Below, one piece after another: positions 2,170-63,376 of a DNA stretch of 64,000 nucleotides. This DNA comes from Chiloscyllium plagiosum (lineage: Eukaryota). The notes below the pieces were generated by a model. The model was not told where the DNA came from. It was given only the letters and a program-made list of their open reading frames with translations, and made no database searches. A program made the translations under genes and the position numbers. Location: assembly GCF_004010195.1 (NCBI RefSeq), contig NC_057719.1:17302893-17366892 (forward strand), in the 5' to 3' direction. Position 1 is the first letter of the stretch, and each line of letters opens with the position of its first letter.

Positions 2170-2291
2170 TATTTGGAGATGCCGGTGTTCGACTGGGGTG
2201 TACAAAGTTAAAAATCACACAACACCAGGTTATAGTCCAACAGGTTTAATTGGAAGCATTAGCTTTCGAAGCACTGCTCCTTCATCACGGC
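2170..2291 (-). mobile_element. Penelope-like terminal-repeat fragment, family B, with decayed hammerhead
   Basis: gttaaaaatcacacaacaccaggttatagtccaacagg motif shared with 42205, 49691 and 50068; minus strand reads gtgatga-aggagcagtgcttc-gaaa-gcta. Confidence 0.75.
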
Positions 2292-2902
2292 AAGCTCAAA
2301 GGGCTGAGTTGTCTTCTCCCATCCCTAGTTCCTACGTTCCTATGTTCCTTCTTTGTATTTGGTGTCAAACTGGAGCGATGTGAGTCTACTTCCTCCATTT
2401 TGCTTGTGAGTCATGGCCCACTCAGTTTGGATTTACACTGTCAGTTTAGAACCAATATCCACCATAAAGAAATACATAAGGCTTCCTGCTCTGAGTTAAC
2501 GAAGGAGCCTGACAGCAGACTCCGAACAGCTGATATATAGACCAGTGCAACATGGAAGCGTCTGCTGAATTTACTTACCTTAGACAAGGTGGTGATGGGG
2601 GTGGGAGCTTCACAATTGACCTCAACACTTCTGGGATTTCTCCCTGAGAAAATTAGCCCAACTTTTCAATGATGCCAATTTTGTGTCGTCAGTAACTGAG
2701 GTTGTAAATGGATCTGGCTATGATGAACTCTGCAGTGGAGTAACCCAACAACGCTCATAGCATGTAACTTTAATTGTTAGAAAGTAGCCATCCACAGAGT
2801 ACAATGAAACACATTCGTTATTGTCTAGCAAGCACCATTGAAGTAGACAATGGGACAGCTGATGATGTGATGGCTGTTTAGCACCAAGCAAGCTAAGAAG
2901 TT

Positions 2903-3366
2903 GGGAAGGATGTGGAAGCATTGGAAAAGGTGCAGAGGAGATTTACCAAGATGGTATGGTCTGGAGGGAAGGTGTTATGAAGAAAGGCTGAGAGACTTGA
3001 ACCTGTTCTCATTGGCAAGAAGAAGGCTAAGAGAGGATTTGATAGAGACATACAAGATGATCAGAGGATTAGACAGGGTAGACAGTGAAAGTCTTTTTCC
3101 TAGGATGATGATGTCAGCTTGTACGAGGGGCATAACTATAAATTGAGGGGTGATAGATTTAAGACAGATGTCAGAGGCAAATTCTTTACTCAGACTGGTA
3201 AGGGCATGGAATGCCCTACCTGCTAATGTAGTCAACTCAGCCACATTAGGGAGAATTAAACAATCCTTAGATAAGCACATTGATGATTTTGGGGTAGTTC
3301 ACAGGTCGGAGCAACATTGAGGGCCGAAGGGCCTGTTCTGCACTGTATTGTTCTATGTTCTATGTT
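2903..3366 (+). mobile_element. CR1/HER1 LINE 3' fragment
   Basis: Encodes YEERLRDLNLFSLARRRLREDLIETYKMIRGLDRVD (CR1 ORF2 C-terminus); ends in (GTTCTAT)n tail. Confidence 0.9.
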
Positions 3367-3995
3367 TCATATCTCCAGTATCTGCTGCAGTTCGTTGTTT
3401 TATTAAAAGATTGGTGCATTGCAAAGGCATGACGTTCATTCCTGAAGACTGAATCATTTTAAATCTCAGTATTAGTTTCAGTTGTACCAAATGCCATGAA
3501 GCACCTTTCCAACTCTGTTCCCAAAATCAGGCGAAGTCAGGGAAGTGATTAACTGGAGCACCGTTTCCGAACACAGCTTTAAACCCTATTTGTCTAAACT
3601 CTACCTGCATAGCACTGCACAAAGGATCTGACTTGCTCCTTTTCATTAAGGATATACTTGGATATGCCTTGACAATCTGATATTTGAGCTTCATCACTAA
3701 TCATTCTGCCTAACATTTGGGAATAACCTCCTCCGCTAGACCAAATGCTGTATCGGTGACATTATGTCACACTGTAACATGAGCTCACAGCTCTTGGAGC
3801 ATATTTCAGTTCACCTTTGGACAGCAGATGGGTTCAATATCCTACCTCCAGCTGATAGCCATTTCTAATGTATTTTGGTATTAGCTTGAACATGAGAGCA
3901 TTTGGCCATAATCTTTCAGGCAAATGGAACAATACATTAAAATTTCAAATGCAAAAATACTTTCAATTTTTTTTTTAATATGCAGCCATGTTATT

Positions 3996-4308
3996 GATTA
4001 GATTAGTTTCCCTACAGTATTGAAACAGGCCCTTCAGCCCAACAAGTCCACACCAACCCTCCGAAGAATAACCCACCCAGTCCCGAACCTATATTTACCC
4101 CTGACTAATCACCAAACACTATGGGCAATTTAGCATGGGCAATTCATCTGATCTGCACATCTTTTGAACTGTGGGAGGAAACCAGAGCACCCAGAGGAAA
4201 CCCACACAGATACAGGGAGAATGTGCAAACTCCACACAGACAGTCGTCCAAGGCGGTTGCCTGCCACTGTGAGACAGCATTGCTAACCATTGAGCCACCA
4301 TGCTGCCC
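3996..4308 (-). mobile_element. HE1-type V-SINE
   Basis: tRNA-like head, V-domain and TAGAT tail matching the other copies. Confidence 0.9.
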
Positions 4309-4639
4309 TATTTTATAGTTTTGGTTTCTAGTCAATTAGCTAACACTTACTTTGTCCCTGTCAATGAATCTGTGAAGTCCAGTTATCTGAACTGTTGATT
4401 ATTCACATGAATTCCTCACCTCCCAATTAGTTGAAATAATTGAAGTGACTGTTTTCAGACAACCATAGCCCAGATCGCACACTGACTCCATAAATTTTGA
4501 CCATCGTTGTTCAAAAGTACAAAGTCCTACATTCCCACCTTACATTATAATATCAGATATCATGTCATTCTTCTTCACAACAGTCTGACCTGATTTTTCA
4601 TAGAGCTTTCTCCCATACATATTGCACAGGCCACACAAA

Positions 4640-4920
4640 CAAATTGCATTTATTTCATGCCTTTAATGAGTAAAACTTCCTAAAGTGCTTCACAGCGACC
4701 TCAAACCATATAAAGAAATATGAGGACAGGTGACCAAATGCTCACTAAAAGATGTAGGATTTAAGGAATGACTTAAAGGACAGAAATAAGCTCAGAGAAG
4801 GGGCAGGAAGGGTATGTCAGAGGTTACAGCGTAGGCAGCTGAAGGCACAGACAACAACAGTGGAGTGAAGTGAATCAGAGATCAAAATGGTCAGAACTAG
4901 AGATTACTGCCCAGAGATGG
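4640..4920 (-). mobile_element. L2 LINE 3' end, decayed
   Basis: ttgcatttat...aaagtgcttcacag...ggcagctgaaggcac, similar to 7150-7380 and to the reverse complement of 53870-54190. Confidence 0.6.
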
Positions 4921-5164
4921 TGACGGTGAAAGTTAATCCCTACACTATTGACATTGGCTAGGACTCAATTCAAGTTTAATCAGGGTTGCAAGTTTCTGTC
5001 ATTGGTCTTCATGTGACTGAATGGGCTGATTCTCTACCCACTATCCATGAGGCAGGATATCCCAAGAGGCAGTGAGATGAGGATTTGATTCCTTTTCTGT
5101 CCTTCTTTGCTTCTGCCCTGATGTACCACCAACGCTCCAGTGTTTGAGTGTAACTATTGAAGAC

Positions 5165-5395: not shown

Positions 5396-6471
5396 TCCAT
5401 CTTCTCTCTGCACCCTCACATTTACATGACATAATCACTTTCAGTCTGTCATTATACATGCCTCTCACCAAACCTCAGGTACTACACCTTCCACTGCTGC
5501 AAGTATTATGATCCTCAAGGGCTTTCACCCAAAACATCCTCTCAAAAGGATGAAGCTTTCCTGCTTTCTGCCCTTCCGACTCACTCACTGGGGACACCTG
5601 ACCACTTCTGACGACAAACAGTTCCTCCATCTGCCTCTATTATGCTCAATCCCAAACCTTGGTCACACTGCAGAAATACAGGCTGAACCCAAATGACGTG
5701 AATCTATGACTCTGTGTTTGACATGTCAACAGCACCTCACCCCACCTACCACAATCTCCAGACTGATTGGGGCCACAGTTTGTACTGTAGGTCCAGTACA
5801 ATGTCCAAACTGTAAGGACTTGGACATCAAAACTCTGGTAGGTGATCATACCTGACTGACCACGGCCAACCTCCTGTAGCAAAAATGGACAATCCATTGA
5901 TTGACTGTGGTGGTACTCCAGCTGAATGTAGTCCCCCTCCAATTCACTAAGAACTGAACCCCTTTGACTTTCACAGGAGCGAGAGTAATAAAGTAATCTT
6001 CCACCCACCTACGGGAGAATTACATACCCAATCCCCAACCCCCCCCCCCCCCCGTTGTCACACCTTAATCTCATTTAACTCTCAGACAATTTCCCTCCAG
6101 TAATGGCTGGAAGGTCAGAGGAAGGGAGAAGCAACAGAAAATCAGGAAAACCACCAGAGATCTCCTGTTGTAACTATGTTGTGCACTAGGCCAACAGTTT
6201 CCTCAAATCAACCACACTAGCAGAAAAGTTCAAGGGATTTTAAGTGCCCATTTTGTCCAGTCACAGAAATCAAAATCTTTCAGTTTTTTTTAATTAATTA
6301 ACCCATTCAGAGGTGTTATGACATGCCTCTGGAACAGGTGGGACTTGAACTAAGACACACCCGACTCAGTGGTCGGGACAGCATCACAAGAGCCCCCAAT
6401 TGTAGATTCTTGTGCTTGTTTAGAGAATAATGCAATGGATCTGTCCACAATACTGGCCATGTCTCCAGATC

Positions 6472-6614
6472 CTGAAGATCCTGAATTTCCTGAAGAAGGG
6501 CCTGTGCCCGAAACGTCGAATCTCCTGTTCCCTGGATGCTGCCTGACCTGCTGTGCTGTTCCAGCAATAAAGTTTCAACTTTGATCTCCAGCATCTGCAG
6601 ACCTCACTTTCTCC
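6472..6614 (+). mobile_element. Penelope-like terminal repeat, family A, 10-bp TSD
   Basis: Ends cctcactttctcc; flanked by tctccagatc at 6462-6471 and 6615-6624. Confidence 0.85.
6486..6521 (+). ncRNA. Minimal type I hammerhead ribozyme (family A)
   Basis: tttc-CTGAAGA-a-GGGC-ctgt-GCCC-GAAA-cg-TC-gaat. Confidence 0.8.
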
Positions 6615-7149
6615 TCTCCAGATCAACTAAATCACCACCACCACAAGTTTCCACAGACTGTGTCTGTATTCGGTCCTGCAAAGGGTGTCTTAAAATTAAA
6701 CACAATTGCACTCTTATGTAAATTCTAACCTTGTGTTTTAAACAATACATTAAAAATATTTATTTACTCAGAAACCAACTACTGTAGTGTGCCCCGTGAA
6801 TTTAAAAATGGTTTCTCTTTTTTTAACAAATTTGCAGCAATTTCAAATTGGATTACAAATGAGTAGACAACCAGACACTTTCATGAAAAATGTTTATTTT
6901 TGTGATAAACTCATTTTCAGCTGTATTAATAAACAAAAAGCACAAGGTTACAGTTCTTATATACAGCAAGGAATGTATTTTTAATGCTGGAAGAAAAATA
7001 AACAATGACATTCCACAATGCTGATCGACTGATCTGACTCAAGAAAGATTTCATGTTCGGTAAGTTGAGCAGAAATGTGAACAATAAGAAAATTCGTGCA
7101 ATTTCAAATGCAATATGCACCCTGATTGTTGTTTGACCTCTAAATCCTT

Positions 7150-7990
7150 TAATGTACAAAAGCATTCCAAGCCATTGAACAGCACAATCATACAAAATTT
7201 AAAACCAAGCTACATAAGGAGATGTTAGACCAGATAACCAAAGTGGTAGATTTTAAGGTTCAGCTAAAAGGAGGAAAGTAAGTAGGAAATCAGAGCATTT
7301 AGGTGAGGAGTGAGGCAGAAATTCTAAAGGTTGGGCTCTAGGTAGCTGAAGGCATGACCAACAATGGTAGAATGAATTAGAAATGCAATCAGGTTTTATT
7401 GTCAAGTGTACTCAAGTACAGGATAGGAGAAAGTGAGGACTGCAGATGCTGAAGATCAGAGCTGAAAAATGTGTTGCTGGAAAAGGGCAGCAGGTCAGGC
7501 AGCATCCAAGGAGCAGGAGAGAAGGGCTTATGCCCGAAACATCAATTCTCCTGCTCCTTGGATGCTGCCTGACCTGCTGTGCTTTTCCAGCAACATATTT
7601 TTTAGCTCAAGTACAGGATACAGGAGTACAGTGAAAAGTGTCACCACTTGCAAAGGACATCATTACAAAATCTTAGGTACAAAATCGAAAAATAAATAAT
7701 TAAGAAGTTCAACGTTACACTTCTTGTCAGTACGAAGTAGTAATAAGACATAAAGTTAAGAGTTGCAAATTATAGTTCTTCTTTAGCCATGGGTCTGGGG
7801 TCACTCCACATTGGGCTTTCCCTATGAGGGATCGATCTCTCAATCTTCGCGTCTTTGCACTACTACCTCGCCATTGGCCGCTGAATGATTAAAATCCATG
7901 GGCGTCACAATTAGAAGAGCGTAAATCTCTCAGAGGTTTGCAAAACTGGAGGCAGCTACAAAGCAATGGGATGTAACGTGCATGTATGAA
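7150..7990 (-). mobile_element. L2 3' end (7150-7380 and 7880-7990) interrupted by a Rex-tail-like insert and a PLE palindrome
   Basis: L2-like sequence stops at agaatgaattagaaat and resumes at tgaatgattaaaatcc. Confidence 0.5.
7426..7605. mobile_element. Inverted pair of family A PLE repeats, 15-bp TSD
   Basis: ggagaaagtgaggactgcag... followed by the reverse arm; ctcaagtacaggata at 7411-7425 and 7606-7620. Confidence 0.85.
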
Positions 7991-9029: not shown

Positions 9030-9275
9030 GTACAAATCTAGACAGCATAGTTTTAAGGTGAGAGGGGAAAGATTTAAAGAGGCCCAAGGAGCAACTTTTT
9101 CACACCAGTAGTGTATGGAATGAGCTGCCAGAGGAAGTGGTGAAGGCTGATACAATTACAACATTTAAAAAGCATCTGGATGGGTACATAAGTAGGAAGG
9201 GTTGAGAGGAATATGGGAAAAATGTTGGCATAAGGGACTAGATCAGTTTAGGATATCTGGTCAGCATGGACAGGT
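9030..9275 (+). mobile_element. CR1/HER1 3' end; tail resumes at 10931-10971
   Basis: gtatggaatgagctgccagaggaagtgg...; continues after the insert as ccgaagggtccgtttctgtgctgtac. Confidence 0.85.
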
Positions 9276-9276
9276 T

Positions 9277-12540: not shown

Positions 12541-12852
12541 CCTGTTCTGGGGTTAACCTGCTACTGCCGAGCTGGCTGCCTGATTGGCATTTAAATCGAT
12601 GGGCTTTCTCTAAAAGAGGGGACAAAGCCTGCCAGTTCTCCAGCCAGTGAGAATTCAGTCCTCCCCTTTACACCCAGCTTTAGGTGTGAGAATAAGCCAA
12701 GGCACTGTGTGTATGTCTCCTTCGGCGGTGGTTCATATAGCTGGATAAATACTGTTCTCGGAGAAAGTGAGGTCTGCAGATGCTGGAGATCAAAGTTGAA
12801 ACTTTATTGCTGGAACAGCACAGCAGGTCAGGCAGCATCCAGGGAACAGGAG

Positions 12853-12888
12853 ATTCGACGTTTCGGGCACAGGCCCTTCTTCAGGAAT
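12853..12888 (-). ncRNA. Minimal hammerhead ribozyme (family A), intact
   Basis: Minus strand: ATTC-CTGAAGA-a-GGGC-ctgt-GCCC-GAAA-cg-TC-GAAT. Confidence 0.85.
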
Positions 12889-13332
12889 GAGCAGAGAGTG
12901 TTCAGCAGGAGAAGATAAAAGGTAGGGAGGAGGGACTTGGAGGAGGGGAGTTGGAAATGTGATAGGTGGAAAGAGGTCAAGGTGAGGGTGATAGGTCGGA
13001 GTAGGACGGAGGCGGAGAGGTCAAGAAGAAGACTACAGGTCAGGAAGGCNNNNNNNNNNNNNNNNNNNNNNNNNNNNNNNNNNNNNNNNNNNNNNNNNNN
13101 NNNNNNNNNNNNNNNNNNNNNNNNNNNNNNNNNNNNNNNNNNNNAAAGGGTAACTAGTCCAGCCCGGCACCGCCTTCCTGACCTGCAGTCTTCTTCTTGA
13201 CCTCTCCGCCTCCATCCTACTCCGACCTATCACCCTCACCTTGACCTCTTTCCACCTATCACATTTCCAACGCCCCTCCTCCAAGTCCCTCCTCCCTACC
13301 TTTTATCTTCTCCTGCTGAACACTCTCTGCTC

Positions 13333-13368
13333 ATTCCTGAAGAAGGGCCTGTGCCCGAAACGTCGAAT
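13333..13368 (+). ncRNA. Minimal hammerhead ribozyme (family A), intact
   Basis: ATTC-CTGAAGA-a-GGGC-ctgt-GCCC-GAAA-cg-TC-GAAT; perfect 4-bp stems I and II, GUC cleavage triplet. Confidence 0.85.
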
Positions 13369-13529
13369 CTCCTGTTCCCTGGATGCTGCCTGACCTGCTG
13401 TGCTGTTCCAGCAATAAAGTTTCAACTAAATACTGTTCTCCCCTTACTTTTAGTGAAACTGCCCTTCATCTCATTTATAAATGTAGGACGATGCAGTAGT
13501 GACTATCCATAACAATTTATAGAACATTA

Positions 13530-15944: not shown

Positions 15945-16023
15945 GGAGAAAGTGAGAACTGCAGATGCTGGAGAGTCAGAGTTGAAAAGTGTGGCGCTGG
16001 AAAAGCACAACAGGTCAGGCAGC
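15945..16023 (-). mobile_element. Family A PLE terminal stub, no ribozyme
   Basis: ggagaaagtgagaactgcagatgctgg...; acctttt repeated at 15938-15944 and 16024-16030. Confidence 0.8.
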
Positions 16024-16255
16024 ACCTTTTAACAATTTAGGAAAAGAATCCCACCTGGTTTAAACTTTCTCAATTGGTATAATCTTGTAGATTCCAAATT
16101 TGCATCTTTTAATGTAGAGGGAGTTCATAGAAGACTAGAGGTTCCAATTACCTTTCTTTAAATAAATTTTTATTTTGAAAAACCAACGCAGGTGATTTTC
16201 ATGACTTCCAACCGAGTTGGAGGAGAACACAGTCTTTCCCTCCCTTGCTAATCCA

Positions 16256-16465
16256 GAAGTCGTATGGCACCAGGTTTTAGACCAACAGGTTTATTTGAAA
16301 TCACAAGCTTTTGGAGTGCTGCAACTTCATCAGGTGAAGTCATGTGAAGGAGCAGTGTTCCAAAAGCTTGTGATTTCAAATAAACCTGTCGGACTATAAC
16401 CTGGTGTCGTGTGACTTCTGACTTTGTCAACACCAGTCTAACACCAGCATCTCCAAATCATCTCT
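16256..16465. mobile_element. Inverted pair of family B PLE repeats with decayed hammerheads
   Basis: Minus strand TCAC-CTGATGA...aaaa-gc-tt-GTGA; ctaatcca at 16248-16255 and 16466-16473. Confidence 0.8.
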
Positions 16466-17164: not shown

Positions 17165-17440
17165 AAATACAAAATACTGTGGATGCTAGAAATCTGAAAC
17201 AGGCACAGAGAATACTGGAGAAACTCAACAGGTCTGGCAGCATCTGGAAGGAGAAACAGAATTAATGTTTCAAGTCAGTGACCCTTCATCAAAACTGAAA
17301 GATGCTGGATTTTTTTTAATATACTTTTGCCAAAGTTGAAGGATGGATGAAGAGAACAGATGGTGCAGATGACAAGGTGGTTGTCAGTGATAGTGAAAGA
17401 GAAAAAGAGATGTGAAGTGAGTGTCATATCTTGTCTGTCT
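17165..17440 (-). mobile_element. Family C PLE 3' end, decayed hammerhead
   Basis: aaaatactgtggatgctagaaatctgaaac...; minus strand ttgatga-agggtcactgactt-gaaa-ca-tt. Confidence 0.7.
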
Positions 17441-18428: not shown

Positions 18429-18429
18429 C

Positions 18430-18830
18430 CCCCCACCTTTTTCCTCTCCTCTTCCCCCTTTGCTATCCTTCTCCCCTGTTTTCCATTTTGCCTTTGCTTC
18501 ACCAATCCCCCCCCCCATCTCCCAAATATTTTGTCATATAGCACTGGCTTCAGCCTTGGTCATTCACAGCTCCTAATCTCCCTATAATCTCTCTATGCAC
18601 TGTCATTATCACCTCTTTATTGCTACCTTTGCTTCTGGAGCCATGACTCCCCTTCTCTCAGCCCAGTATAAATACCTCCCTATTTCTCCCTCTTTTTAGC
18701 TTTGACAAAGGGCCAGTTCGACTCGAAACATCAGCTCTTTTCTCTCCTTACAGATGCTGCCAGACCTGCTGAGATTTTCCAGCATTTTCTCTTTTGGTTT
18801 CAGATTCCATCATCTGCAGTAATTTTCTTT
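18430..18830 (+). mobile_element. Family C-related PLE 3' end, decayed hammerhead
   Basis: GCT-ttgacaa-agggccagttcgactc-GAAA-ca-TC-AGC followed by cagatgctgccagacctgctgag...catctgcag. Confidence 0.7.
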
Positions 18831-19044: not shown

Positions 19045-19232
19045 TACAGAGAAACAGAAAAATTCTGCCGAAGTTCAGCAGGTCTCCCAGCTTCTGTGGA
19101 GATGCTCAGAGTTAACATTTTGAGCCTGGTGTGAACCTTTTTCTGAATTATCAGACTCAAAACATCACCTCTATTGCTCCAGCATTTTCTGATTAATTTT
19201 GCATTTTCAGCACCTGCAGTACTATGCACTTA
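19045..19232. mobile_element. Inverted pair of family C PLE repeats, old
   Basis: aacagaaaaattctgccgaagttcagcaggtc..., then reverse arm ending cagcacctgcagtac. Confidence 0.6.
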
Positions 19233-20222: not shown

Positions 20223-20316
20223 ATTCCTGATGAAGGGCTTTTGCCCGAAACATCGATTTTCCTGCTTCTCTGATGCTGCCTGAACTGCTGCACTTTTCCA
20301 GCAATACATTTTTCAG
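20223..20316 (+). mobile_element. Family A PLE fragment with hammerhead at 20223-20258
   Basis: attc-CTGATGA-a-GGGC-tttt-GCCC-GAAA-ca-TC-gatt. Confidence 0.8.
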
Positions 20317-27824: not shown

Positions 27825-28928
27825 TAAGCAACATAGCATCCTGAGGGGTCCTGACAGGGTAGATGTGAAAGGATTTTTACTCTTATGGAAGTATCTATAA
27901 CTCATGGTCCCTCAAGGTCTCCCATGTAAAACAGAGATTAGGCAAAAAAAATTCTCTCCATAAGACCATAAGGTATAAAAGCAGAGTGAGGCCAATCAGC
28001 CCATCAAGTCTGCTCCACCATTTGATTCATGGCTTATGTTTCTCAACTCCATTCTCCTGCCTTCTCCCTATTCACCCTTCATCCTATTAATCAGGAACTT
28101 ATCTCTGTTTTAAATACACTCAATGACTTGGTCTCCACAACCTCTGTGGCAATCCACAAAGTCACCACTCAGGCTGAAGAAATTCCTCCTTATCTCAGTT
28201 CTCAAGGGTCATCCCTTCACTCTGAGTCGGAGACATAAAAACTGCAGATGCTGGAATCCAAGGTAGACAAGTAGGAGGCTGGAAGAACCCAGCAAACCAG
28301 ACAGCTTCAGGACAAGGTGAAGTCAACGTTTCGGGTGCAACCCTTCTTCAAGATCAAGAAGGGTTATACCTGAAACGTTGACTTCTCTACCTCAAGTTAC
28401 TGCCTGGCTTGCTGTGTTCTTCCAGCTTCTTGCTTGTCTACCATCCCTTCACTCTAAGGCTGTGCACTTGGGACATAGCCTCCCCCAGTCATGGAAGCAT
28501 CTTCTCCATGTCCACTCTATCCAGGCCTCTCGGTATTCTGCAAATTTCAGTCAGATCCCCCTCCCCCATCTTTCTAAACTCTATTGAGCACAGACCCAGA
28601 GTTCTCAACCGCCCCTCATATGACAAGCTCTTCATCCCCAGATCATTCTTGTAAACCTCCTCTGGAACGTCTCCAATCCAGCACATCTTTCCTCGGAGGG
28701 TCATGAGACTTTGAAACACTCTTCCTGAAACGATAGTTGAAGCAGATTCCTTGAATATTTTTAAGGCAGAGGGAGGTCAAATTCTTGCTATGCAAGGGAT
28801 GAGTGGTTCTCATGGTTAAATGGGAATGCAGATTTCAGGTTCCTGTCAGATCAGCCACGATTGGAAGAATGACAGAACAATTTTGAGGGGCTGAATGGCT
28901 CCTTCCTGCTGCCAATTCTTATTATGTT
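27825..28928. mobile_element. Nested CR1 fragments: plus-strand 27825-27958 and 28695-28928, minus-strand 27959-28690
   Basis: LSYEGRLRTLGLCSIEFRKM..DLTEICRIPRGLDRVD on minus strand; cataagaccataag tail. Confidence 0.8.
28227..28441. mobile_element. Inverted pair of a divergent family A-like PLE repeat, 14-bp TSD
   Basis: Minus strand ttgaaga-a-gggt-tgc-accc-GAAA-cg-TT-gac; catcccttcactct at 28210-28223 and 28442-28455. Confidence 0.75.
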
Positions 28929-36264: not shown

Positions 36265-36385
36265 GGTTCTGAAGAACCTGTTCGGAAGGAGACACACACT
36301 GGACTTGAAGCATTAACTGTGTTTCTCTCTCCACGGATGCTGCCAGATCTGCTGAGTTTCTCCAGCATTCTCTATGTTTGTATCT
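36265..36385 (+). mobile_element. Family C PLE fragment, followed by (CA)n to 36410
   Basis: gttctgaaga...ctggacttgaagcattaactgtgtttctctctccacggatgctgccaga. Confidence 0.7.
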
Positions 36386-41362: not shown

Positions 41363-41519
41363 AAAGTCAAGAGTGTGGTGTTGGAAAAGCTTTCTTGATG
41401 AAGGGCTTATGCTTGAAACGTTGATTCTCCTGCTCCTCGGGTGCTGCCTGACCTGCTGTGCTTTTCCAGCACCACACTCTCGACTCTGATCTCAAGCATG
41501 TGTAATCCTCACTTTCTCC
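41363..41519. mobile_element. Family A PLE repeat with short inverted stub
   Basis: gagtgtggtgttggaaaagc, then ttgatga-agggcttatgctt-gaaa-cg-tt...cctcactttctcc. Confidence 0.8.
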
Positions 41520-41614
41520 TTTTTATACCAAGCACAGGTATAAAAATAGAAACTTGTACATGGGTTTTTAATGCATTCACTCGAGATTTTTTTGTACTGT
41601 AAATCATGTTGGGC

Positions 41615-41990: not shown

Positions 41991-42205
41991 TCCCTAGAGT
42001 TGTACAGAAATGTTTTTTGGGAATATGGACATGGTGATTTGTGACTTATTTATTAGCAAAGGAACTTACAGCAATGGCCGTTCTAGTTGACCATGTCAGA
42101 CATTTGCCTGCCAAGCTGACACGGCTCTTCACTATAATTCATTACACCTGAAGGGCTTTAAAGCATTTCTGAAATGTGATAAGAAGATGCTGTAGAAGTA
42201 TAAGG

Positions 42206-42304
42206 TTAAAAATCACACAACACCAGGTTATAGTCCAACAGGTTTAATTGGAAGCACACTAGCTTTCGGAGCGACGCTCCTTCATTAGGTGATTGTCCGA
42301 ATCA
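42206..42304 (-). mobile_element. Family B PLE repeat, 13-bp TSD
   Basis: Minus strand CAC-ctaatga-a-GGAGC-gtc-GCTCC-GAAA-gc-TA-GTG; tagaagtataagg at 42193-42205 and 42305-42317. Confidence 0.85.
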
Positions 42305-43230
42305 TAGAAGTATAAGGCTTTACTAAGACATTTGGTGCACCATGAAGATTGTTAGCGGTAAGTTTATAAATAAAGAATCTTGGTAGCTAGCCAGACTGAG
42401 CATGGTTAAAATAAGAGAAGCAGGTTGGGAATAGGAGTGATGTAAAACACTCCTCCATGTTTTTCTACAACACTTTCCCTGCCTGCTCATGCACGATTTT
42501 CTCTAACGACCCTTCCTATTCTTGGCCACCTCATATTTATTAATGGCATAGGGATGGGGAGGGTCTGGTTGGGGTGCTGTTCAGTGGGTTGGTACAGACT
42601 CGGTGGGCTGAATGGCCTGTTTCTGCACTGTAGGGATTCTATGATGTGACCTGCCATCCCTGAGTGACACTACCCAAGATTCAGCCTGCACATAAAAACA
42701 CCTGGCTCCACTTCAGTGCAAGTCTACATCTTCCACTGACATCAAATTACTGGAGTGCTTATCTGGTAACCAGTTTAAGATGAGCATTAAAAACCTTCAA
42801 GTCAATACTGGGGAAGACTAAAAGCGACTGTTTTATATAGCACATACTGTCAGCCAGCGACTGGCTCACTCTGTCTCTGCAGACTGCTGAACAAAATTAT
42901 TCATAACAGTGGTGATGTACTTTACCCAAAATGAGCTACTGACCATATATCCACATCATCACTGAGACTGGTTATATCTACCACTGTAACATTGTCCTAC
43001 ATCACCCTGGACTCAGCTGAAACCCTCATCCAGAATTATGTAACATCTCAACCTGATTATATATCTTCTGGCCAACCTCGCACATTTCACTTTCTATAAA
43101 CAGAACTACAGAAGTCTTACAATGCAGAATGAGGCCATTCGGCCTACTTGCCTGTGGTGGCTTTTGAAATGAGCAGAAAATGTGTTGCTGGAAAAGCGCA
43201 GCAGGTCAGGCAGCAACCAAGGAACAGGAG

Positions 43231-43266
43231 AATCGACGTTTCGGGCATAAGCCCTTCTTCAGGAAT
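43231..43266 (-). ncRNA. Minimal hammerhead ribozyme (family A)
   Basis: attc-CTGAAGA-a-GGGC-ttat-GCCC-GAAA-cg-TC-gatt. Confidence 0.8.
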
Positions 43267-43872
43267 GAGGAAAGTGTGTCCAGCAGGCTAAGATAAAAGG
43301 TAGGGAGGAGGGACTCCTCCATCGCCAGACAATGCAGGTCCTTGGACTCCTCCATCGCCAGACCATGGCAACATGGCTTTTGGGTTGGTGGGGGGTGTGG
43401 ACCTGACGAGGGAGTGGTCTTTTCAGAACGCTGATAGGGGAGGGGAGGGAAATATATCCCTGGTGGTGGGGTCTGTTTGGAGGTGGCGGAAATGACGNNN
43501 NNNNNNNNNNNNNNNNNNNNNNNNNNNNNNNNNNNNNNNNNNNNNNNNNNNNNNNNNNNNNNNNNNNNNNNNNNNNNNNNNNNNNNNNNNNNNNNNNNNN
43601 NNNNNNNNNNNNNNNNNNNNNNNNNNNNNNNNNNNNNNNNNNNNNNNNNNNNNNNNNNNNNNNNNNNNNNNNNNNNNNNNNNNNNNNNNNNNNNNNNNNN
43701 NNNNNNNNNNNNNNNNNNNNNNNNNNNNNNNNNNNNNNNNNNNNNNNNNNNNNNNNNNNNNNNNNNNNNNNNNNNNNNNNNNNNNNNNNNNNNNNNNNNN
43801 NNNNNNNNNNNNNNNNNNNNAATGTGTTGCTGGAAAAGCGCAGCAGGTCAGGCAGCATCCAAGGAGCAGGAG

Positions 43873-43908
43873 AATCGACGTTTCGGGCATAAGCCCTTCT
43901 TCAGGAAT
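43873..43908 (-). ncRNA. Minimal hammerhead ribozyme (family A)
   Basis: Same motif as 43231-43266. Confidence 0.8.
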
Positions 43909-43967
43909 GAGGAAAGTGTGTCCCTCCTCCCTACCTTTTATCTTAGCCTGCTTGGCCTACTTTCCTC

Positions 43968-44003
43968 ATTCCTGAAGAAGGGCTTATGCCCGAAACGTCG
44001 ATT
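43968..44003 (+). ncRNA. Minimal hammerhead ribozyme (family A)
   Basis: attc-CTGAAGA-a-GGGC-ttat-GCCC-GAAA-cg-TC-gatt. Confidence 0.8.
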
Positions 44004-44595
44004 CTCCTGCTCCTTGGATGCTGCCTGACCTGCTGCGCTTTTCCAGCAACACATTTTCAGCTCTGATCTCCAGCATCTGCAGTCCTCACTTTCACCTCTT
44101 TTGAAATGAGCACAATTATCCAGAGCCAGTTTCCTGCTTTATCCACATACCCTTGCATATTATTTTCACCCAAACAAATAAACCTCATCCCAATCTCTTA
44201 TTGCATGTACACTGACATGCTCAAACTCTCTGTTACCTTTGCACAGACCTACATTGGCTCCTGGTTAAAGAATACCTCAACTTTAAAATTTGTATCCTTG
44301 CTATTAATTACTTCAGAAGCCTCTTCTATTCATCATTCTATAGCCCTCTTTGGGCCCACAGTCCTCCGAGATCTCTGCTCCTTGGTGTTGAATCTTTAAT
44401 GTCTGTACCTTCAGTAGCCAAAACCTCAACCTTTGAAGCTCCCTTCATAAAACACACCTCTCTACATGTCCTTTCTTAAAGCCTACGCCTTGACCAAGCT
44501 CTGCCCTAATATTTCCTTGTGCTCTCAGTGTCAAATGTCATTCAGTCTTCTAATTACTTGCCTTTTTTAATAATGTACTCGTGAAACACCTTAGA

Positions 44596-46631: not shown

Positions 46632-47625
46632 CATAGAGTCATACAGTGCAGAAAAGGCTCTTCGGCCCATTGAGTCTACATTGACATGACTACCACTAAA
46701 ATCATGCTAATTCCAGTTCCTTGCACTTGTCCCACATCCTTGAAAGTTATGTATTTCAAGTTAGGAAACAGTGAGGACTGCAGATGCAGAAGAGTCAGAG
46801 TCGAATATTCTGGCGCTAGAAAAGTACAGCAGGTCAGGCAGCATCCAAGGAGTAGGGCAGTAGGTCTTCATCAGGAATGGGGAGGGGCAAGGGGGCTGAG
46901 AGATATATAGGAGGGTAGGAGTGGGGATGGTGGAAAGGTAGGTGGGATGGCGATAGTTGGATGAAGGTTGGAGTTGATTGTGATAGGTCGGTGGGGAGGG
47001 TGGAGCGGATGGTTTTCGGCTTCCACTACTTTCCCAGGCATTGCATTCCAGATTCGCCTCTGAGTGAAAAGGTGTTTTCTCAAATCCCTTCTGAACCTCC
47101 TGTCCCTTACTTGAAAACTATATCCTCTTGTAATTGACCTCTCAACCAAGGGGAACAGCTGCTCTCTATTCACCCTGAGCATACTCTTCATAATCTTATA
47201 CACCTCAATCATGTCCCGTCTCAGTCTTCTCTGCTCTAAAGAAACAATTCAAGCCTATCTAATCTCTCCTTGTAGTACAATTTCTCCAACACAGGCAACA
47301 TCCTGTTGCCTCCCCACGCTGTACCGCCCCAGTGTTATCACATCCTTCCTGTAGTGAGGTGACAAGAACTGTACTTTAGCTGTGTCCTGACCCACGCTGT
47401 GTGCAACTCCTTGCTCTTATACTTTTTGCCATGATTAATGAAAGCAAGTGTCCCACATACCTGCTTAACTATCCTGTACATGTTCTCTGCCTAGTTCAGG
47501 GATCTGTTAATACTTAACCCAAGATCTCTCTGTTCCTCTAAGCCACCCAGTCTCCTGCCATTCATTGAATACTCCTTCATCTCGTTTCTTCCTCCAAAGT
47601 GCATCAATTTTCACTCATCAGGGTA
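46632..47625 (-). mobile_element. CR1 3' fragment interrupted by a family A PLE (about 46762-47010)
   Basis: IEVYKIMK...FTQRRIWNAMPGKVVEAE; the insert starts aggaaacagtgaggactgcagatg. Confidence 0.85.
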
Positions 47626-48047: not shown

Positions 48048-48269
48048 AAGCTAATTTAATGACAACCATGCAGCAAACATCAATTGCCATGTGTGGACAA
48101 AAAAAAAATCAATTAAATTCAGTTCACGGAGAAAGTGAGGTCTGCAGATGCTGGAGATCAAAGTTGAAACTTTATTGCTGGAACAGCACAAAGCTAATTT
48201 AATGACAACCATGCAGCAAACATCAATTGCCATGTGTGGACAAAAAAAAATCAATTAAATTCAGTTCAC
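48048..48269. repeat. 80/79-bp direct duplication flanking a 63-bp family A PLE stub (48128-48190)
   Basis: aagctaatttaatgac...attcagttcac at 48048-48127 and 48191-48269, differing only in A-run length. Confidence 0.9.
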
Positions 48270-48642: not shown

Positions 48643-48800
48643 CGTTTTTGTGGTTCTGTTCGCCGAGCTGGGAACTTGTGTTGCAGACGTTTCATCCCCT
48701 GTCTAGGTGACATCCTCAGTGCTTGGGAGCCTCCTGTGAAGTGCTTCTGTGATGTTTCCTCCAGCATCTATAGTGGTTTGTCTCTGCCGCTTCCGGTTGT
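48643..48800 (-). mobile_element. Probable PLE terminal repeat, family D
   Basis: Carries a hammerhead; tcaaga on both sides; sequence unlike families A-C. Confidence 0.6.
48683..48722 (-). ncRNA. Minimal hammerhead ribozyme (family D)
   Basis: GCA-CTGAGGA-t-gtcacct-agac-aggggat-GAAA-cg-TC-TGC. Confidence 0.75.
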
Positions 48801-49686
48801 CAAGAAGTAGATACATTCAGGGTTGTCCTTCATGCCACTCCAAGATGGCATCCCCACGAGACTTTGTCACATGCCCAGACAGAAACAGGGCAGAGTGAAG
48901 CTGTGCCAGCTCCTCTGATGCACATTGGTTAACATCCTTACAGCATTCATTTTGACTCTGCATTTGGCTTGCTGCAGACCAAATCCATGGAAAATAATTC
49001 CTAACAATTACCACAAAGTGTGTTTGTTGATATCAGGAAGTGTATTTGGTGGCATTAGACGTCACTGGTTAATTAATGACCTAGTGTACCTTTCCCCATA
49101 TAACACCACATATATATATATCACTTTGAAAATTGGTGCTTTGGAACTACCTTGTATCTAGACGTGAAGTCTCCTGTAACTTTCAAAGTTGAAAGTTCAG
49201 TATGCATTAATAAGCTGGTAAACAAGCTCTCGTCACATGCAAAAACATATATAATATTGATATTATTTATATAGATACCACCTCTTGCACAGTCTGAGCT
49301 GTTGCATCATGTCTGTAGTTTCCTACTTGTCTTCTAATAACCTCAGGTTGGAGACAATTCCTACTGGGAAACCCATTGACACCAATAGTTGTTTGCTGAA
49401 GCAATAAAAGTGGAAAAAAATTGGAACTGGTCAGGAACACAAAAGAAAGTAGGAAATATTTATCCAAATTGGCATTAAGATTGCAAAATGAAACTTTTCC
49501 CAGCAATTTAAATTCACTTCGGGGTACTCCACATCATTTGGAAATGTGCCCAGGAAGCTAATTTTGATCAATGCATCTTTTTGTTTAAAGTGGGATAAAT
49601 GCAACGTAAAGAAAAGATATACCAGGCATGATAATGACATGCCCACATCTCCTGTTTGTGGTAACAAAACACCTGACTGATTCAGG

Positions 49687-49904
49687 GAGAGTTAAAAATC
49701 TCACAACACCAGGTTATAGTCCAACAGGTTTCTTTGGAAGTACAAGCTTTTGGAGCACCGCTCCTTCATTAGGTAGCTGGCTACCTGATGAAGGAACAGC
49801 GCTCTGAAAGCTAGTGCTTCCAAATAAACCTGTTGGACTATAACCTGGTGTTGTGAGATTTGTAAATTTGTCTACCCCAGTCCAACACAGGCTCCTACTC
49901 ACCA
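49687..49904. mobile_element. Inverted pair of family B PLE repeats, 9-bp TSD
   Basis: tgattcagg at 49678-49686 and 49905-49913; hammerhead remnants on both strands. Confidence 0.85.
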
Positions 49905-50030
49905 TGATTCAGGCAGGGCATTCACTCCACCCTCTGCCCCAACTCACTGGACACAGAACCAGCACCAACAAGGCAGGAACATGACACAATTAAACACTGC
50001 CACTCCTGTCTTCACCAACTGGTAATCATG

Positions 50031-50242
50031 ATTTGGAGTTGACAGTGTTGGACTGGGGTGTACAAAGTTAAAAATCACACAACACCAGGTTATAGTCCAA
50101 CAGGTTTAATTGGAAGCACTAGCTTTCAGAGCGCTGCTCCTTCATCAGGTGGCTGTGGTATATCTGATGAAGGAGCAACATTCCGAAAGCTAGTGCTTCC
50201 AATTAAACCTGTTGGACTATAACCTGGTGTTGTGTGGTCTTT
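50031..50242. mobile_element. Inverted pair of family B PLE repeats, 14-bp TSD
   Basis: aactggtaatcatg at 50017-50030 and 50243-50256. Confidence 0.9.
50117..50151 (-). ncRNA. Minimal hammerhead ribozyme (family B); mirror copy on plus strand at 50161-50195
   Basis: CAC-CTGATGA-a-GGAGC-agc-GCTCt-GAAA-gc-TA-GTG. Confidence 0.75.
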
Positions 50243-50784
50243 AACTGGTAATCATGTGGTGTATAGGCAGAAATGCCAGTTGCCTTTAGGCCGTTGAAGA
50301 TTCTGTAAGGTACAGAAGTATGTTGTAATTATCCTGATGTTATGAGTTAAAATCTCAGCATGGTCAGTTGCAAACTTGAATTTGATATTGCTAGCAATTT
50401 ATGGGTCGGCACCAGAAAGCAATCGATAAAGTGGCCCGATAGGTGTGAAAACAAACCTGACACATTTCAAGGAATGGAATTTGTCAACCCTACCCTGCCT
50501 TGTCTACATGTGACTTCATTCCCACATTCTAGGTTTACATTAATGCCTTCAGGGAAACTTGGGATGGGCACGAAAAACAGTCTTGTGAATGTTGCCTACA
50601 CTCAAGGAATGAATTTTAAAAGAAGTTAAGGACAATTGAACAGAAAATCCCTCTAATGATATGTAAATCTAAAAAGGTTCTAAACTAGTGTATGCTCAGA
50701 AAATCCAAATGTGTTGCATTAAAGTTTAGCTTCAATTTTCAAAACAAAGAAATCTTTACAGAACCAAATCAGAAGCAGGCCATT

Positions 50785-51987
50785 GGAGAAAGGGAGGAGT
50801 GCAGATGCTGGAGATCAGAGTCGAGGCGTGTGGTGCTGGAAAAGCACAGCAGGGCAGGCAGCATCCGAGGAGCAGGAGAATCAGGAATGAGGGGGTGGCA
50901 CAAGGGGGCTGTGAGAGAAATGGGAGGAGGAGTGAGCCTGGGGGAAGGTAGCTGGGATAACGATAGATTAGATTAGATTAGATTCCCTAACAGTTCACAC
51001 CGACCCTCCGAAGAGTAACCCACCCAGACCCTTTTCCCCTCTGACTAATGCACCTAACACTGGGCAATTTAGCATGGCCAATTCACCTGACTTGCACATA
51101 GAGTCATAGAGATGTACAGCATGGAAACAGACCCTTCGGTCCAACCCGTCCATGCCGACCGTGGGAGGAAACCGGAGCACCCGGAGGAAACCCATGCAAA
51201 CATGGGGAGAATGTGCAAACTCCACACTGAGGCTGGAATCGAACCTGGGACCCTGGTACTGTGAGGCAGCAGTGCTAACCACTGGGCCACTGAATTTGGG
51301 GGTGAAGATGATAGGTCAGAGAGGAGGGTGGAGCGGATAGGTAGAAGGAAGATGGACAGGTAGGACTGGTCAAGAGGGCGGTGCCGAGTTGGAAGGTTGG
51401 ATGTGGGATAAGGTGGGAGGCAGGGAGTTGTGGAAACTGGTGAAATCCGCATTGATCCCATGCAGTTGGAGAGTCCTAAGGCAGAAAATGAGGCGTTCTT
51501 CCTCCAGGCATCGAGTGATTATCATTTGGCAGTAGAGAAGTCATCACCTTCCTCCCCACCAACCCTTTAGAATCCTCATTTTCCATCTCACCAACCTCCA
51601 GACAGAAACCCCCCCGGTCCTCATCTTCCACCCCACCAACCTCTGGATACATTACCTCTGTCCAATGTCCCAAAGGATCCTTCCACATCTGACAGAGATT
51701 TACCTGCACTTCCACACACATCATTTATTGTGTTCAATGCTCCCAATCGTGTCCTCGACATTGGGGAGACAGGATGCCAACTTGCGGAACGTTTCAGGGA
51801 ACATCTCTGGGACATACGCACTAAACAACCCCACCGCCCTGTGGTCGAACACTTTAACTCCCCCTCCCACTCCACCAAGGCATGCAAGTTCTGGGCCTCC
51901 TCCACACCAGGAGGGTTCTGTCTGGAAGTTGGTGGGATGGAAGGTGAGGATTCTGAAGGTTGATGGGGAGGAAGGTGATGACTTCTC
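50785..51987. mobile_element. Penelope-like element relic: family A terminus, ORF C-terminus and inverted GIY-YIG segment
   Basis: Minus 51430-51520 TRCLEEERLIFCLRTLQLHGINADFTSF; plus 51655-51900 QRFTCTSTHIIYCVQCSQ/DIGETGCQLAERFREHLWDIRTKQPHRPVVEHFNSPSHS. Confidence 0.9.
50964..51293 (-). mobile_element. HE1-type SINE inside the PLE, itself carrying a CR1 tail (51098-51160)
   Basis: SINE sequence interrupted by catagagtcatagagatgtacagcatggaaacag...gccgacc. Confidence 0.85.
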
Positions 51988-52614: not shown

Positions 52615-52619
52615 TAGTG

Positions 52620-54190: not shown

Positions 54191-54227
54191 AGGGAGAGAA
54201 TGAGAAGGGGACTCAGTTCACACTTCA

Positions 54228-59005: not shown

Positions 59006-59227
59006 GTGTCGATGCACCCACATGCTGTTAGGAAGAAGGTTCCAAGATTTTAATCCAGTGACTGTGAAGAAATGACACCAGGATGTGTATGTTCTTGTCA
59101 GTCTTAGCATCTTAGGTCAATGCTAGGTAGTGCGTCTAATTTCATTCCTTTTCTTAGACTTTGTAGCATTGTTACAATGACTGGTGAGTGTCTTTCTGGG
59201 CCATTTCAGAAGACATTTAAAACATGG

Positions 59228-59473
59228 AAAAAGTGAGGACTGCAGATGCTGGAAATCAGAGTTTACATCAGAGTGGTGCTGGAAAAGCACGGCAGGTCAG
59301 GCAGCATCCGAGGAGCAGGAAAATCGATGTTTCGGTCAAAAGCCCTTCATCAGGAATGAATCATTCGGGCAAAAGCCCTTCAATCCTGATGAAAGGCTTT
59401 TGCCCGAAACGTCGATTTTCCTGCACGTCAGATGCTACCTGACCTGCTGTGCTTTTTCCAGCACCACTCTCAC
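59228..59473. mobile_element. Inverted pair of family A PLE repeats with hammerheads (59322-59357 minus, 59382-59417 plus)
   Basis: ttaaaacatgg / ttaaagcatgg flanks at 59217-59227 and 59474-59484. Confidence 0.85.
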
Positions 59474-61379: not shown

Positions 61380-61510
61380 GATGTTCTGAAGAAGGGTCAC
61401 TGGACTCAAAACCCCATCTCTACTTTCTCTCCACAGATGCTGTCAGACCTGCTGAGTTTCTCCAGTAATTTCTGTTTGTCTCAGATTTCCAGCATCCATT
61501 ATTCTTGTTT
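61380..61510 (+). mobile_element. Family C PLE terminus with decayed hammerhead
   Basis: gtt-CTGAAGA-a-GGGTC-actg-GACTC-aaaa. Confidence 0.75.
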
Positions 61511-61714
61511 CATTCTCCTGTTCATGATGTTTACTTTGGCTAAAAATGGTAGTTGAGGGGAGAGTGTTGATGTATGAGAGGGTTTAAAAGTGTCTTTCCT
61601 TTCAAACATATTTCCCAAAGTTTCACTTTCTGAGGTTTGCTTGCAATGCAAGCTTCAGTGGAGCTTCTGTCAGAAATATGGTGAGGCGAGATTGTTTGTC
61701 TTGATGAGGTAATC

Positions 61715-62270
61715 ACAGAACAAGACTATTCAGCCCATTGTTCTATACTGAGTGCCAATCCCCTGCCTTTCCCCTATATCCCCTTCTATCCAAATAATCA
61801 TTCAATGCCCTTTTGAATGCCTCAATTGAACCTGCCTCCACTTTATTTCCAGGCTGTGCATTCAGGACCCAAACTATTTGTTGTGTGAAAAAATTTTACC
61901 TTACATCACCTTTGCTTAATATGCACATCACTTTAAATCTCTGCCCTCTTACTTACTTACTTGTATGATTGGGAACTGCTTGTCCCTATCTTCTCTATCA
62001 AGCCTACTCATGATTTTGAAAACCCCAATCAAATCTCTGCTCAGCGTTCTTCTCTCCAAGAGCAGTCACAGCTCCTTCAATCTGTTCTTAAAACTGAAGT
62101 CACTCAGTTTGGGAACAATTCTTGCAAATTACTTGTACACTTTCTCCAATGCATTCACATCTGTCCTGTAATGTGGCAGCCACACCTGTGCAAGATACCC
62201 CAGCTGAGGTTTAACAAGTGAGTGAAACAAGTTCACTTTCTTGTTCTTGCAGTCTATGACCCTATTAAAC
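61715..62270 (-). mobile_element. CR1 3' fragment; appears to resume at 63028-63167
   Basis: tcaattgaacctgcctccac...ccctattaaa, then tcctgccaccttcaat...ccaaagtgcatc. Confidence 0.75.
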
Positions 62271-62338
62271 AGGTGTGAATACTTTAAGGCCATAAGACCA
62301 TAAGACTATGTTATGCTTCGTTGATGTAAAGGGAGAAC

Positions 62339-63026
62339 AAAGTTAAAAATCACACACCCACACAGGTCCTCTTTCATACCTGTGATCTCTCTCAGATACA
62401 CACACACCCATACTCACGTGTACACCCTCTCACAGGCGTATACTATCCATCACACATGCATGTGCGCACACACACGTGCATTCACACACTCTCACTCTCA
62501 CTCTCACTCTCACTCACACACCACACACACGCGCACACACACACACACAAAGTGTATGGGGTGAATTTGTATTTGCAGATGTATTGTATTCTATTTTGTT
62601 CAAAAAGCACACAATATGTAGGCAGTCAGTCCAGGTGACATTTTAAAAATTCCTACTTTTAGAAATAGAACAGGTCTGACTGAAGGTTGGAAGACAGACA
62701 GACTCTAACCCTGCACCATTAATGCATTGTCTGAGCTAAGATGTCACCTTTTTTTATATAAAGCCTTAAGTTATCTCAGGATTGTGACTTGAAAGAAGTT
62801 CTGGGATTTACATATCGAAACCTGTAACCTATCTAAAGATTTAACAGCTATGTAGGTTTGTTCATTGCATCGCATCAGTTGTATGGCACTTTAATTTTTT
62901 ATTATGAACTTTGTGTCCTATAATCCTGTCCCATTAGCTACCTGACGAAGAAGCAGCACTCCGAAAGCTTGTACTTCCAATTAAACCTGTTGGACTATAA
63001 CCTGGTGTTGTGTGATTATTAACTTT
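62339..63026 (+). mobile_element. Long family B PLE 3' segment with internal (CA)/(CTCACT) tract and hammerhead at 62939-62973
   Basis: TAC-CTGACGA-agaagcagcactcc-GAAA-gc-TT-GTA; 18-bp inverted ends aaagttaaaaatcacaca / tgtgtgattattaacttt. Confidence 0.75.
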
Positions 63027-63167
63027 ATGCCTCCTATCCATCTGTCCTGCCACCTTCAATAATCATATACACCCAGCTCTCTCTGCTCCTGTACCCCACT
63101 TTAGAATTACACCCTCTATTTTACATTATCTTTCAATGTTTTTCTGACCAAAGTGCATCATATCAGT

Positions 63168-63376
63168 GAGGAGAAAGTGAGGTCTGCAGATGCTGGAGAT
63201 CAGAGCTGGAAATGTGTTGCTGGAAAAGCGCAGCAGGTCAGGCAGCATCCAGGGAACAGGAGAATTGACGTTTCGGGCATAAGCCTGAAGAAGGGCTAAT
63301 GCCCGAAACGTCGATTCTCCTGTTCCCTGGATGCTGCCTGACCTGCTGCGCTTTTCCAGCAACACATTTCCAGCTC
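63168..63376. mobile_element. Inverted pair of family A PLE repeats, 14-bp TSD
   Basis: tgcatcatatcagt at 63154-63167 and 63377-63390; CTGAAGA-a-GGGC-taat-GCCC-GAAA-cg-TC core from 63285. Confidence 0.9.

Follow-up and report, generated by a model that had tools for sequence, protein, structure and literature searches.

Hammerhead-bearing ends of Penelope-like retrotransposons in a 64-kb stretch of the Chiloscyllium plagiosum genome

What are the many short repeats with a hammerhead-like core that crowd a 64,000-nucleotide stretch of the genome of the shark Chiloscyllium plagiosum (G000:C10:17302893-17366892, in a 3.56 Gb assembly; the whole stretch is called the window below), how were they inserted, and do they work as ribozymes? 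We judge it likely, with a probability of about 0.8, that the motifs are minimal type I hammerheads at the 3' pseudo-long-terminal-repeat (pLTR) ends of endonuclease-bearing (EN+) Penelope-like elements (PLEs), that most copies are 5'-truncated stubs of 90-130 nt, that the stubs were likely copied from uncut RNA, and that they are likely idle as ribozymes.

Hammerhead motifs in the window and in the genome

We scanned the 62,585 non-N bases of the window with a strict descriptor, namely CUGANGA, zero or one extra nucleotide, a stem II of at least 3 bp and GAAA-NN-UH. This yielded 12 exact cores, against a mean of 0.14 and a maximum of 2 in 100 dinucleotide shuffles; 11 of the cores were followed by a palindromic connector (shuffle mean 0.06), and seven combined the palindrome with a stem I of at least 3 bp (shuffle mean 0.01). 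A family-based mapping placed 40 fragments in the window, belonging to groups A (with subfamilies), B, C, D and E. The hammerhead region is reached by 30 of these fragments, among which the exact core is kept in 12, the palindrome as well in 11, and a stem I of at least 3 bp too in seven. An earlier note, made from the letters of the window alone, had reported about 25 repeats in four families, whose letters need not correspond to ours, with a hammerhead core and ACGU or AGCU connectors, all of which our results bear out, but its statement that most repeats retain this geometry was too strong. An Rfam scan of the window gave no hammerhead match at E<=10, the best hits being sub-threshold microRNA (miRNA) models on inverted pairs.

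We estimated the genome-wide number from 140 stretches of 10 kb taken at fixed round offsets in large contigs, a non-random sample of 1,351,261 non-N bases that leaves out small contigs, with five shuffles as control. The sample held 117 exact cores, 77 of them palindromic, 60 with a stem I of at least 2 bp and 32 with a stem I of at least 3 bp, the shuffle means for these four classes being 4, 1.2, 0 and 0. The comparison with shuffled sequence that the earlier note had suggested gave motifs far in excess of the controls in both the window and the sample. The density of exact cores in the sample was 87 per Mb (bootstrap 70-106), with at least one core in 72 of the 140 stretches, in agreement with the very large number expected in that note; the window, at about 190 per Mb (12 per 62.6 kb), is about twice as dense. 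For the whole genome we estimate about 3.0x10^5 exact cores, 2.0x10^5 palindromic, 1.5x10^5 with a stem I of at least 2 bp and 0.8x10^5 with one of at least 3 bp. When decayed fragments are included, the densities are 175 (A), 62 (B), 45 (E) and 10 (C) per Mb.

The sampled motifs also define the geometry more closely. The earlier note had placed no nucleotide between A9 and stem II, and this was incomplete: an extra nucleotide stands there in 111 of the 117 sampled motifs (in 99 of these it is A), and only two window motifs are recovered when the descriptor omits it. By pair type, the 117 motifs comprise 78 G-C, 30 G-U and 9 A-U. The connector is palindromic, with no stem III, in 77 of the 117, and 33 of the 40 non-palindromic motifs have ACAT or ATGT, that is, ACGT after CpG decay. 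Stem II is 4-5 bp and stem I 2-4 bp long; in the commonest A subfamily a U-U mismatch interrupts stem I after only two contiguous pairs. Stem I is ATTC/GAAT in A2, CAC/GTG in B, GCA/TGC in C and AGTT/AACT in E, and stem II differs among A, B, C, D and E while the core is constant. Since the stems change in pairs between groups (as read by eye) around a constant core, selection on the hammerhead in the source elements is suggested.

The motifs share the core, the palindrome and the lack of stem III with the minimal hammerhead ribozymes (min-HHRs) in the pLTRs of metazoan PLEs (Cervera and De la Pena 2014, PMC4209133), but their stems are shorter and our figure of about 3x10^5 compares with about 9,000 in Xenopus tropicalis and about 4,000 in the coelacanth, which were counted with a different descriptor. 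Up to 120,000 retrozymes have been given for the axolotl (PMC7229834), so that an estimated 2-3x10^5 motifs in 3.56 Gb would exceed the per-genome counts compared. For cartilaginous fish, a Penelope expansion in whale shark introns has been described (bioRxiv 443036) and one chondrichthyan has been screened for tandem retrozymes (bioRxiv 10.64898/2026.07.22.740005). No shark hammerhead census was found in the literature searched, which did not include Lunse et al. (RNA Biol 14:1499), possibly covering sharks, and no shark is named in the searched portions of the text and supplements of PMC4209133. The class and architecture are already published, and the scale and the footprint statistics are what our data add; both are of use to Penelope specialists.

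Parent elements

Upstream of the A, B, C and E ends we found pieces of a reverse transcriptase (RT) followed, in order, by pieces of a GIY-YIG endonuclease, which bears out the earlier attribution to minimal type I hammerheads of PLEs and now ties the motifs to coding frames. A broken reading frame precedes the A copy at 43262, and in related copies of this frame elsewhere in the genome RT, a CX4CxxC linker and GIY-YIG follow one another, the frame ending 100-300 nt before the A hammerhead; Pfam matched the A frames to RVT_1 (E=5e-3) and to GIY-YIG (E=2e-4 and 4e-4, just under the curated cutoff). Relatives of B (locus L095) carry a different linker-bearing RT and GIY-YIG open reading frame (ORF) upstream of a long CA-rich 3' untranslated region (UTR), and the ORF pieces upstream of the E ends encode RT and GIY-YIG that distantly match the A protein (36-64%). 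Relatives of C have a clear RT (RVT_1, E=4e-9) and then a GIY-YIG-like frame; in locus L128 this frame continues from the RT thumb to GIY-YIG without a zinc-finger linker. A Pfam search of the B and C endonuclease pieces gave no match, and in the PDB the C RT matched only group II intron RTs, and those weakly. Group D was joined to A by DNA similarity only.

A CX2-5CxxC linker between RT and EN has been given as the mark of Neptune elements (PMC8557442). By this motif rule, groups A (linker CNRKKCKTC) and B (CHGNHCKTC) are classified from sequence as Neptune-type, with the reservation that Nematis has the linker too, and E is likely Neptune-type from its match to the A protein. Group C reads as Penelope/Poseidon-type, judged by the missing linker and by an ORF start inside the hammerhead. 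Specifically, in C copies (48719 on the minus strand; L128, L133 and L070) the stop codon of the upstream ORF lies in the stem II loop, and an ATG at A9, in another frame than that ORF, stays open through the tail (L070).

Three further observations concern the parent copies. Group A ORF copies are often 97-99% identical in the N-terminal region (L179-L207), frequently with assembly gaps inside, and because so many are this similar, one A subfamily is young. The group B 3' UTR contains CA/CT microsatellite-like tracts of variable length that are part of the element (window 62487-62549; L038, L112). A long group A copy (G000:C7:43016000-43024500; L136:1611-5079 and 6033-7446) lies just downstream of large exons on the same strand; by eye these read like titin Ig/FN3 repeats.

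Insertion footprints

Positions within the repeats are numbered from core C3; copy ends, read from BLAST matches, may be off by a few bases. The majority of copies are 5'-truncated stubs of 90-130 nt with one of two 3' ends about 35-40 nt apart, at about +80-92 (short) and +120-128 (tailed) in A and B, and at about +75 and +107 in C. Many stubs form tight outward-facing pairs, and one arm was short and the other tailed in 45 of 53 pairs of group A, a count in which one locus probably figures twice, and in 24 of 26 pairs of group B, where independent arms would give about half. The same combination was seen in all 21 rows (19 distinct loci) of long inversions bounded by target-site duplications (TSDs), loci that had been chosen by ORF queries. 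At least 10 nt were shared across the flanks in 36 of 75 pairs, with a peak at 14-15, against a maximum of 9 for mismatched flanks; the TSDs measure 14-15 bp for A and B and 11-13 bp for C. Because the arms share a target duplication and combine a short with a tailed end, each inverted pair represents one insertion. The window itself has nine outward-facing inverted pairs, six of them with TSDs of 14-15 bp, and no head-to-tail tandem array of stubs. The earlier note needs correcting here, as the copies are not scattered monomers only. The features of the window are as follows.

2167..2287, minus: group B stub, tailed 3' end; starts within the core, C3 missing
6487..6617, plus: group A2 solo stub, tailed; exact core at 6490; begins at the stem I 5' strand
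7425-7520 minus (tailed) and 7520-7608 plus (short): group A inverted pair; cores truncated; 15-bp TSD
12760..13427: group A2 inverted pair, 3' UTR arms around a 95-N gap; exact cores at 12884 (minus) and 13337 (plus); one tailed and one short arm; 14-bp TSD
15945..16024, minus: group A tail fragment without hammerhead
16268..16461, both strands: group B inverted pair; GAAA changed to AAAA in both arms
17192..17298, minus: group E stub, core decayed
18708..18813, plus: group E stub, core decayed
19050..19115, minus: group E fragment below the core
20223..20316, plus: group A stub; exact core at 20227; palindrome removed by CpG decay
28241..28444, both strands: inverted pair of group D, which is related to A; each core decayed or cut short; 14-bp TSD
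36297..36373, plus: group E fragment
41392..41520, plus: group A stub, tailed; C3 mutated
42205..42296, minus: group B stub, short end; G5 mutated
43171..44098: complex insertion of group A with two minus arms (43171-43315 and 43821-43920) that flank 323 Ns and a plus arm at 43925-44098; exact cores at 43262, 43904 and 43972; 15-bp TSD
43375..43497, minus: broken group A Penelope ORF fragment, region between RT and endonuclease
46763..47000, minus: old group A copy; second half of the hammerhead deleted
48128..48190, minus: group A2 tail fragment
48643..48802, minus: group C (Poseidon-type by sequence) end, short; exact core at 48719
49690..49909, both strands: group B inverted pair with an exact core at 49785 (plus) and a decayed one at 49772 (minus)
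50024..50246, both strands: group B inverted pair; exact cores at 50148 (minus) and 50164 (plus); 14-bp TSD
50785..50882, minus: group A end, truncated at about +29
51397-51537 minus and 51651-51903 plus: broken group A-type GIY-YIG endonuclease pieces
57017-57062 plus and 57325-57491 minus (GAAA lost): two old group A fragments
59214..59470, both strands: group A inverted pair with intact cores but mismatches in stem II; TSD not found
61383..61477, plus: group E stub, decayed
62692..63030, plus: end of a group B copy, including a long 3' UTR; core at 62942 with mismatches in stem II
63167..63377: group A inverted pair; minus arm tailed, core truncated; plus arm short, exact core at 63285; 14-bp TSD

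The window contains N gaps at 13050-13144, 22993-23989 and 43498-43820, two of which fall inside Penelope inverted insertions, and of the two minus arms at 43171 and 43821, on either side of such a gap, one may be a duplicate created in assembly. The solo stub at 6487 is not an assembly artefact, since contigs of two other runs span its 5' junction; no empty allele was seen at this stub.

Inverted 5'-truncated pLTRs, tails of 30-40 bp and TSDs are known from EN+ PLE insertions (PMC8557442, PMC3846280). The shark copies share with these the outward-facing inverted arms, the one-sided tail and the palindromic junctions, as well as, in group C, a pLTR and tail with a frame open from an ATG. They differ in the length of the TSD, which is 8-10 bp in the rotifer, and in being mostly fold-backs of about 200 nt that end at the hammerhead edge; in addition, the rule of one short and one tailed arm is quantified here. 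The short and tailed ends also match the two internal RT start sites of the Anolis Poseidon element PAc, which in vitro cuts both strands and inserts without hammerhead cleavage (Frangieh et al. 2024, PMC11167929). PAc and group C share the ATG at A9 of the core, open through the tail, whereas A, B and E appear to be Neptune-type and the upstream ORF of C stops inside the stem II loop. The copies thus agree, in vivo, with a single in vitro study on an uncut template and two RT start sites.

The state of the template can be read from the 5' ends. The predicted scissile bond follows +28 in A and +29 in B, and copies end there at 0.004 (A) and 0.009 (B) per nt, not above the stretch just 5' of it; further upstream the rate is 0.002-0.005 per nt. 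The cut site is spanned by 202 of 240 A, 67 of 84 B, 58 of 61 E and all 14 C copies. Since copies run through the cut site without an excess of ends there, the templates were uncut or re-ligated, and the stubs were likely copied from RNA that the ribozyme had not cut.

Copies stop instead at -12..+8, which covers the stem I 5' strand and the first core box, at 0.043 per nt in A and B and 0.073 in E. Among 135 A copies starting near this edge, 75 abut an inverted partner, 46 a unique flank and 14 a shared upstream sequence, and in view of the first two figures the pile-up is not a mere lack of upstream references. Most likely, and this is the reading that we put first, copies stop here because the RNA starts here. 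The words at the edge, TCATTC in A and TCAGTT in E, are initiator-like by the consensus of the initiator (Inr) element. These words, together with the internal promoter in the 3' pLTR of the Drosophila virilis Penelope, which can drive outward transcription (PMC2377424), are why an RNA start is preferred.

Two other candidates were considered and rejected: a cleavage footprint in the 5' ends, for which there is no excess at +26..+33, and a splice acceptor at the hammerhead edge, where an AG stands at about -4 in some B copies and at -2 in E, whereas A lacks the AG and no upstream exon is shared.

Several observations weigh against the account given so far. Cut-site-spanning copies could come from RNA that had been cut and re-ligated. 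As for an RNA start, the 5'-end peak is broad (about 20 nt), no extra cap G precedes the solo 5' ends (14 of 51, against a background of 27%), no pile-up of read starts was seen at the edge in one single-cell library, and group C has no 5' peak at -12..+8 (3 of 13, a small number). Group E pairs were short and tailed in only two of seven cases, with an uncertain threshold. A search of 283 tail ends and 30 N-terminal loci, many with assembly gaps, did not turn up any full-length copy with a 5' pLTR joined to the ORF. To these must be added a shortage of mutations at core adenines, which is described below.

The breadth of the peak would suit a different cause, in which the 5' pile-up is not an RNA end but a structural or protein-induced RT stop at the folded or bound hammerhead, TTC/GAA inverted words in stem I and the core favouring the head-to-head join. 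Several junctions do overlap by 2-10 nt within the core region, and strand-switch joints recur at 43968/43979 in RNA reads. However, a structural block should halt copying 3' of the stems, yet few copies end there (0.004-0.009 per nt), and most junctions have small insertions rather than overlaps (gap of at least 0 in 39 of 53 A pairs). We regard such a stop as possible, though doubtful.

The fixed 5' edge and fixed 3' ends also define a unit of about 130 nt, from the hammerhead to the end of the tail, which may be a self-propagating, non-autonomous element of the short interspersed nuclear element (SINE) kind, with its own promoter at the hammerhead 5' edge, transcribed into the flank and mobilised in trans via the internal RT start. 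The initiator-like words in A and E and the outward promoter of D. virilis would fit such a unit, as would the excess of stubs over ORF-bearing copies (only 51 of 240 A copies extend beyond -30). However, there is neither an excess of cap G nor a demonstrated stub-specific subfamily, the unique flanks of the 6487 stub (5900-7200) had no reads in a 2% subsample, and a master-mRNA start at the 5' pLTR or an RT stop would leave the same footprint, so that we think this explanation rather unlikely.

Returning to copying from uncut RNA that starts at the hammerhead edge, the insertions may be pictured as follows. By analogy with the anole Poseidon, the element protein would act as a dimer and nick the two target strands about 14-15 nt apart. 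Each 3'-OH would then prime internal reverse transcription, one at the short site and the other at the tail site; both cDNAs would usually end near the hammerhead 5' edge, most likely the RNA start, and would be joined head-to-head through microhomology or end joining. The source elements would keep the hammerhead by selection, with cutting there only as a dimer or with the help of protein, and the scattered copies would be its fossils. A bolder proposal, which we offer only tentatively, is that the RNA of these Neptune-type elements begins with the hammerhead, so that an internal RT start would yield a self-contained hammerhead mini-element of about 130 nt outnumbering its parent; the more than 10^5 footprints would then indicate, in vivo, that Penelope elements transpose without ribozyme cleavage and that one cut strand primes at the first of the two start sites and the other strand at the second. 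In any case, the copies form a large natural data set on the role of the Penelope hammerhead and on the origin of the tail and the inversion.

Non-LTR retrozymes (PMC7229834; bioRxiv 10.64898/2026.07.22.740005) are likewise short repeats that derive from PLEs, do not code for protein, contain type I hammerheads and have large TSDs, but they form head-to-tail tandems, carry canonical hammerheads and give circular RNA, whereas the stubs here are solo or head-to-head. With no tandem in the window and only 9 of the 77 intact palindromic motifs of the sample having a same-strand partner within 1 kb, the stubs stand apart from retrozymes.

Decay and ribozyme activity

We compared mutations in the core with those downstream, without subfamily-diagnostic positions. 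In the core, C, G and U mutate no differently from the same bases downstream. G12, the general base, is part of a CpG; deamination has changed it in 29 of 169 copies of A, 15 of 62 of B and 5 of 14 of C, a frequency that does not differ from other CpGs (p=0.14 in A, p=0.16 in B), and the palindromic CpG was hit in 67 of 350 positions. Core adenines, by contrast, mutate less than downstream ones in A (13/774 vs 53/934, or 1.7% vs 5.7%; p=1e-5) and in B (p=0.048). This deficit may come from some selection or from leftover subfamily variation downstream, and is not fully explained.

The palindrome could in principle join two motifs into a working dimer, and the earlier note had referred to published proposals of this kind. 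Within 300 nt, 37 of the 77 intact palindromic motifs have an antisense copy, against the nine that have a partner on their own strand within 1 kb. The data thus do not bear out a dense population of functional ribozymes able to act as dimers. Three window pairs were predicted to fold into hairpins of 80-100 bp, at -123 to -187 kcal/mol, that absorb the motif, suggesting that inverted pairs may sequester the hammerhead in one long hairpin. Minimum-free-energy folding gave no hammerhead dimer; the method is unable to represent a dimeric core, and this outcome was not used.

In one single-cell polyA run of the same species, 2,950 reads fell on an A copy, on both strands, and 94% of them continue into unlike sequence, which shows that many copies are passively present in transcripts. 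There was no pile-up of read starts or ends, the cut site included, in this library, which is poorly suited to the purpose.

These data bear on whether a substantial fraction of the copies actively cuts host transcripts, the ACGU/AGCU palindrome pairing motifs that are close together or on separate molecules into dimers. Some 2x10^5 motifs with core and palindrome are available, copies occur in RNA reads of both strands, core adenines are under-mutated, and the window has two exact B cores on the same strand at a distance of 379 nt. However, G12 and the palindromic CpG decay freely, 37 of the 77 intact motifs sit in fold-backs while only nine have a near same-strand partner, and reads do not pile up at the cut site, albeit in a weak library for this; published min-HHR monomers did not cleave and dimers did so little (PMC4209133), and one of nine Xenopus dimers cleaved (bioRxiv 2026.07.22.740005). 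We therefore consider widespread activity very improbable, and the scattered copies are likely idle as ribozymes and mostly fossils.

The two B pairs between 49690 and 50246 are independent and 115 nt apart, with their plus-strand exact cores at 49785 and 50164, and they make a natural test case for cis-dimer cleavage. As to the fold-backs, miRNA models of Rfam matched below the gathering score (best E=1e-9) at 43874-44001, 7482-7583, 63235-63344, 50105-50202, 59320-59417 and 28320-28384. Penelope fold-back pairs could thus be mis-annotated as miRNA precursors; besides attracting such false calls, they are likely a large source of double-stranded RNA in host transcripts.

The window also has an abundant repeat of about 340 nt (1608-1802, 3993-4298, 11839-12038, 15465-15776, 19452-19796, 25263-25581, 41011-41328, 50985-51290 and 52289-52608; family labels D6-D10, D13, D15 and D16), which we take to resemble the shark HE1/V-SINE type. 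A search of 14 window ORFs gave one weak RT match (E=1e-4, 55803-56318) and no host gene. Together with a dispersed 221-nt repeat (9056-9276, 24061-24281, 41735-41955 and 56490-56710), this RT match probably represents fragments of long interspersed nuclear elements.

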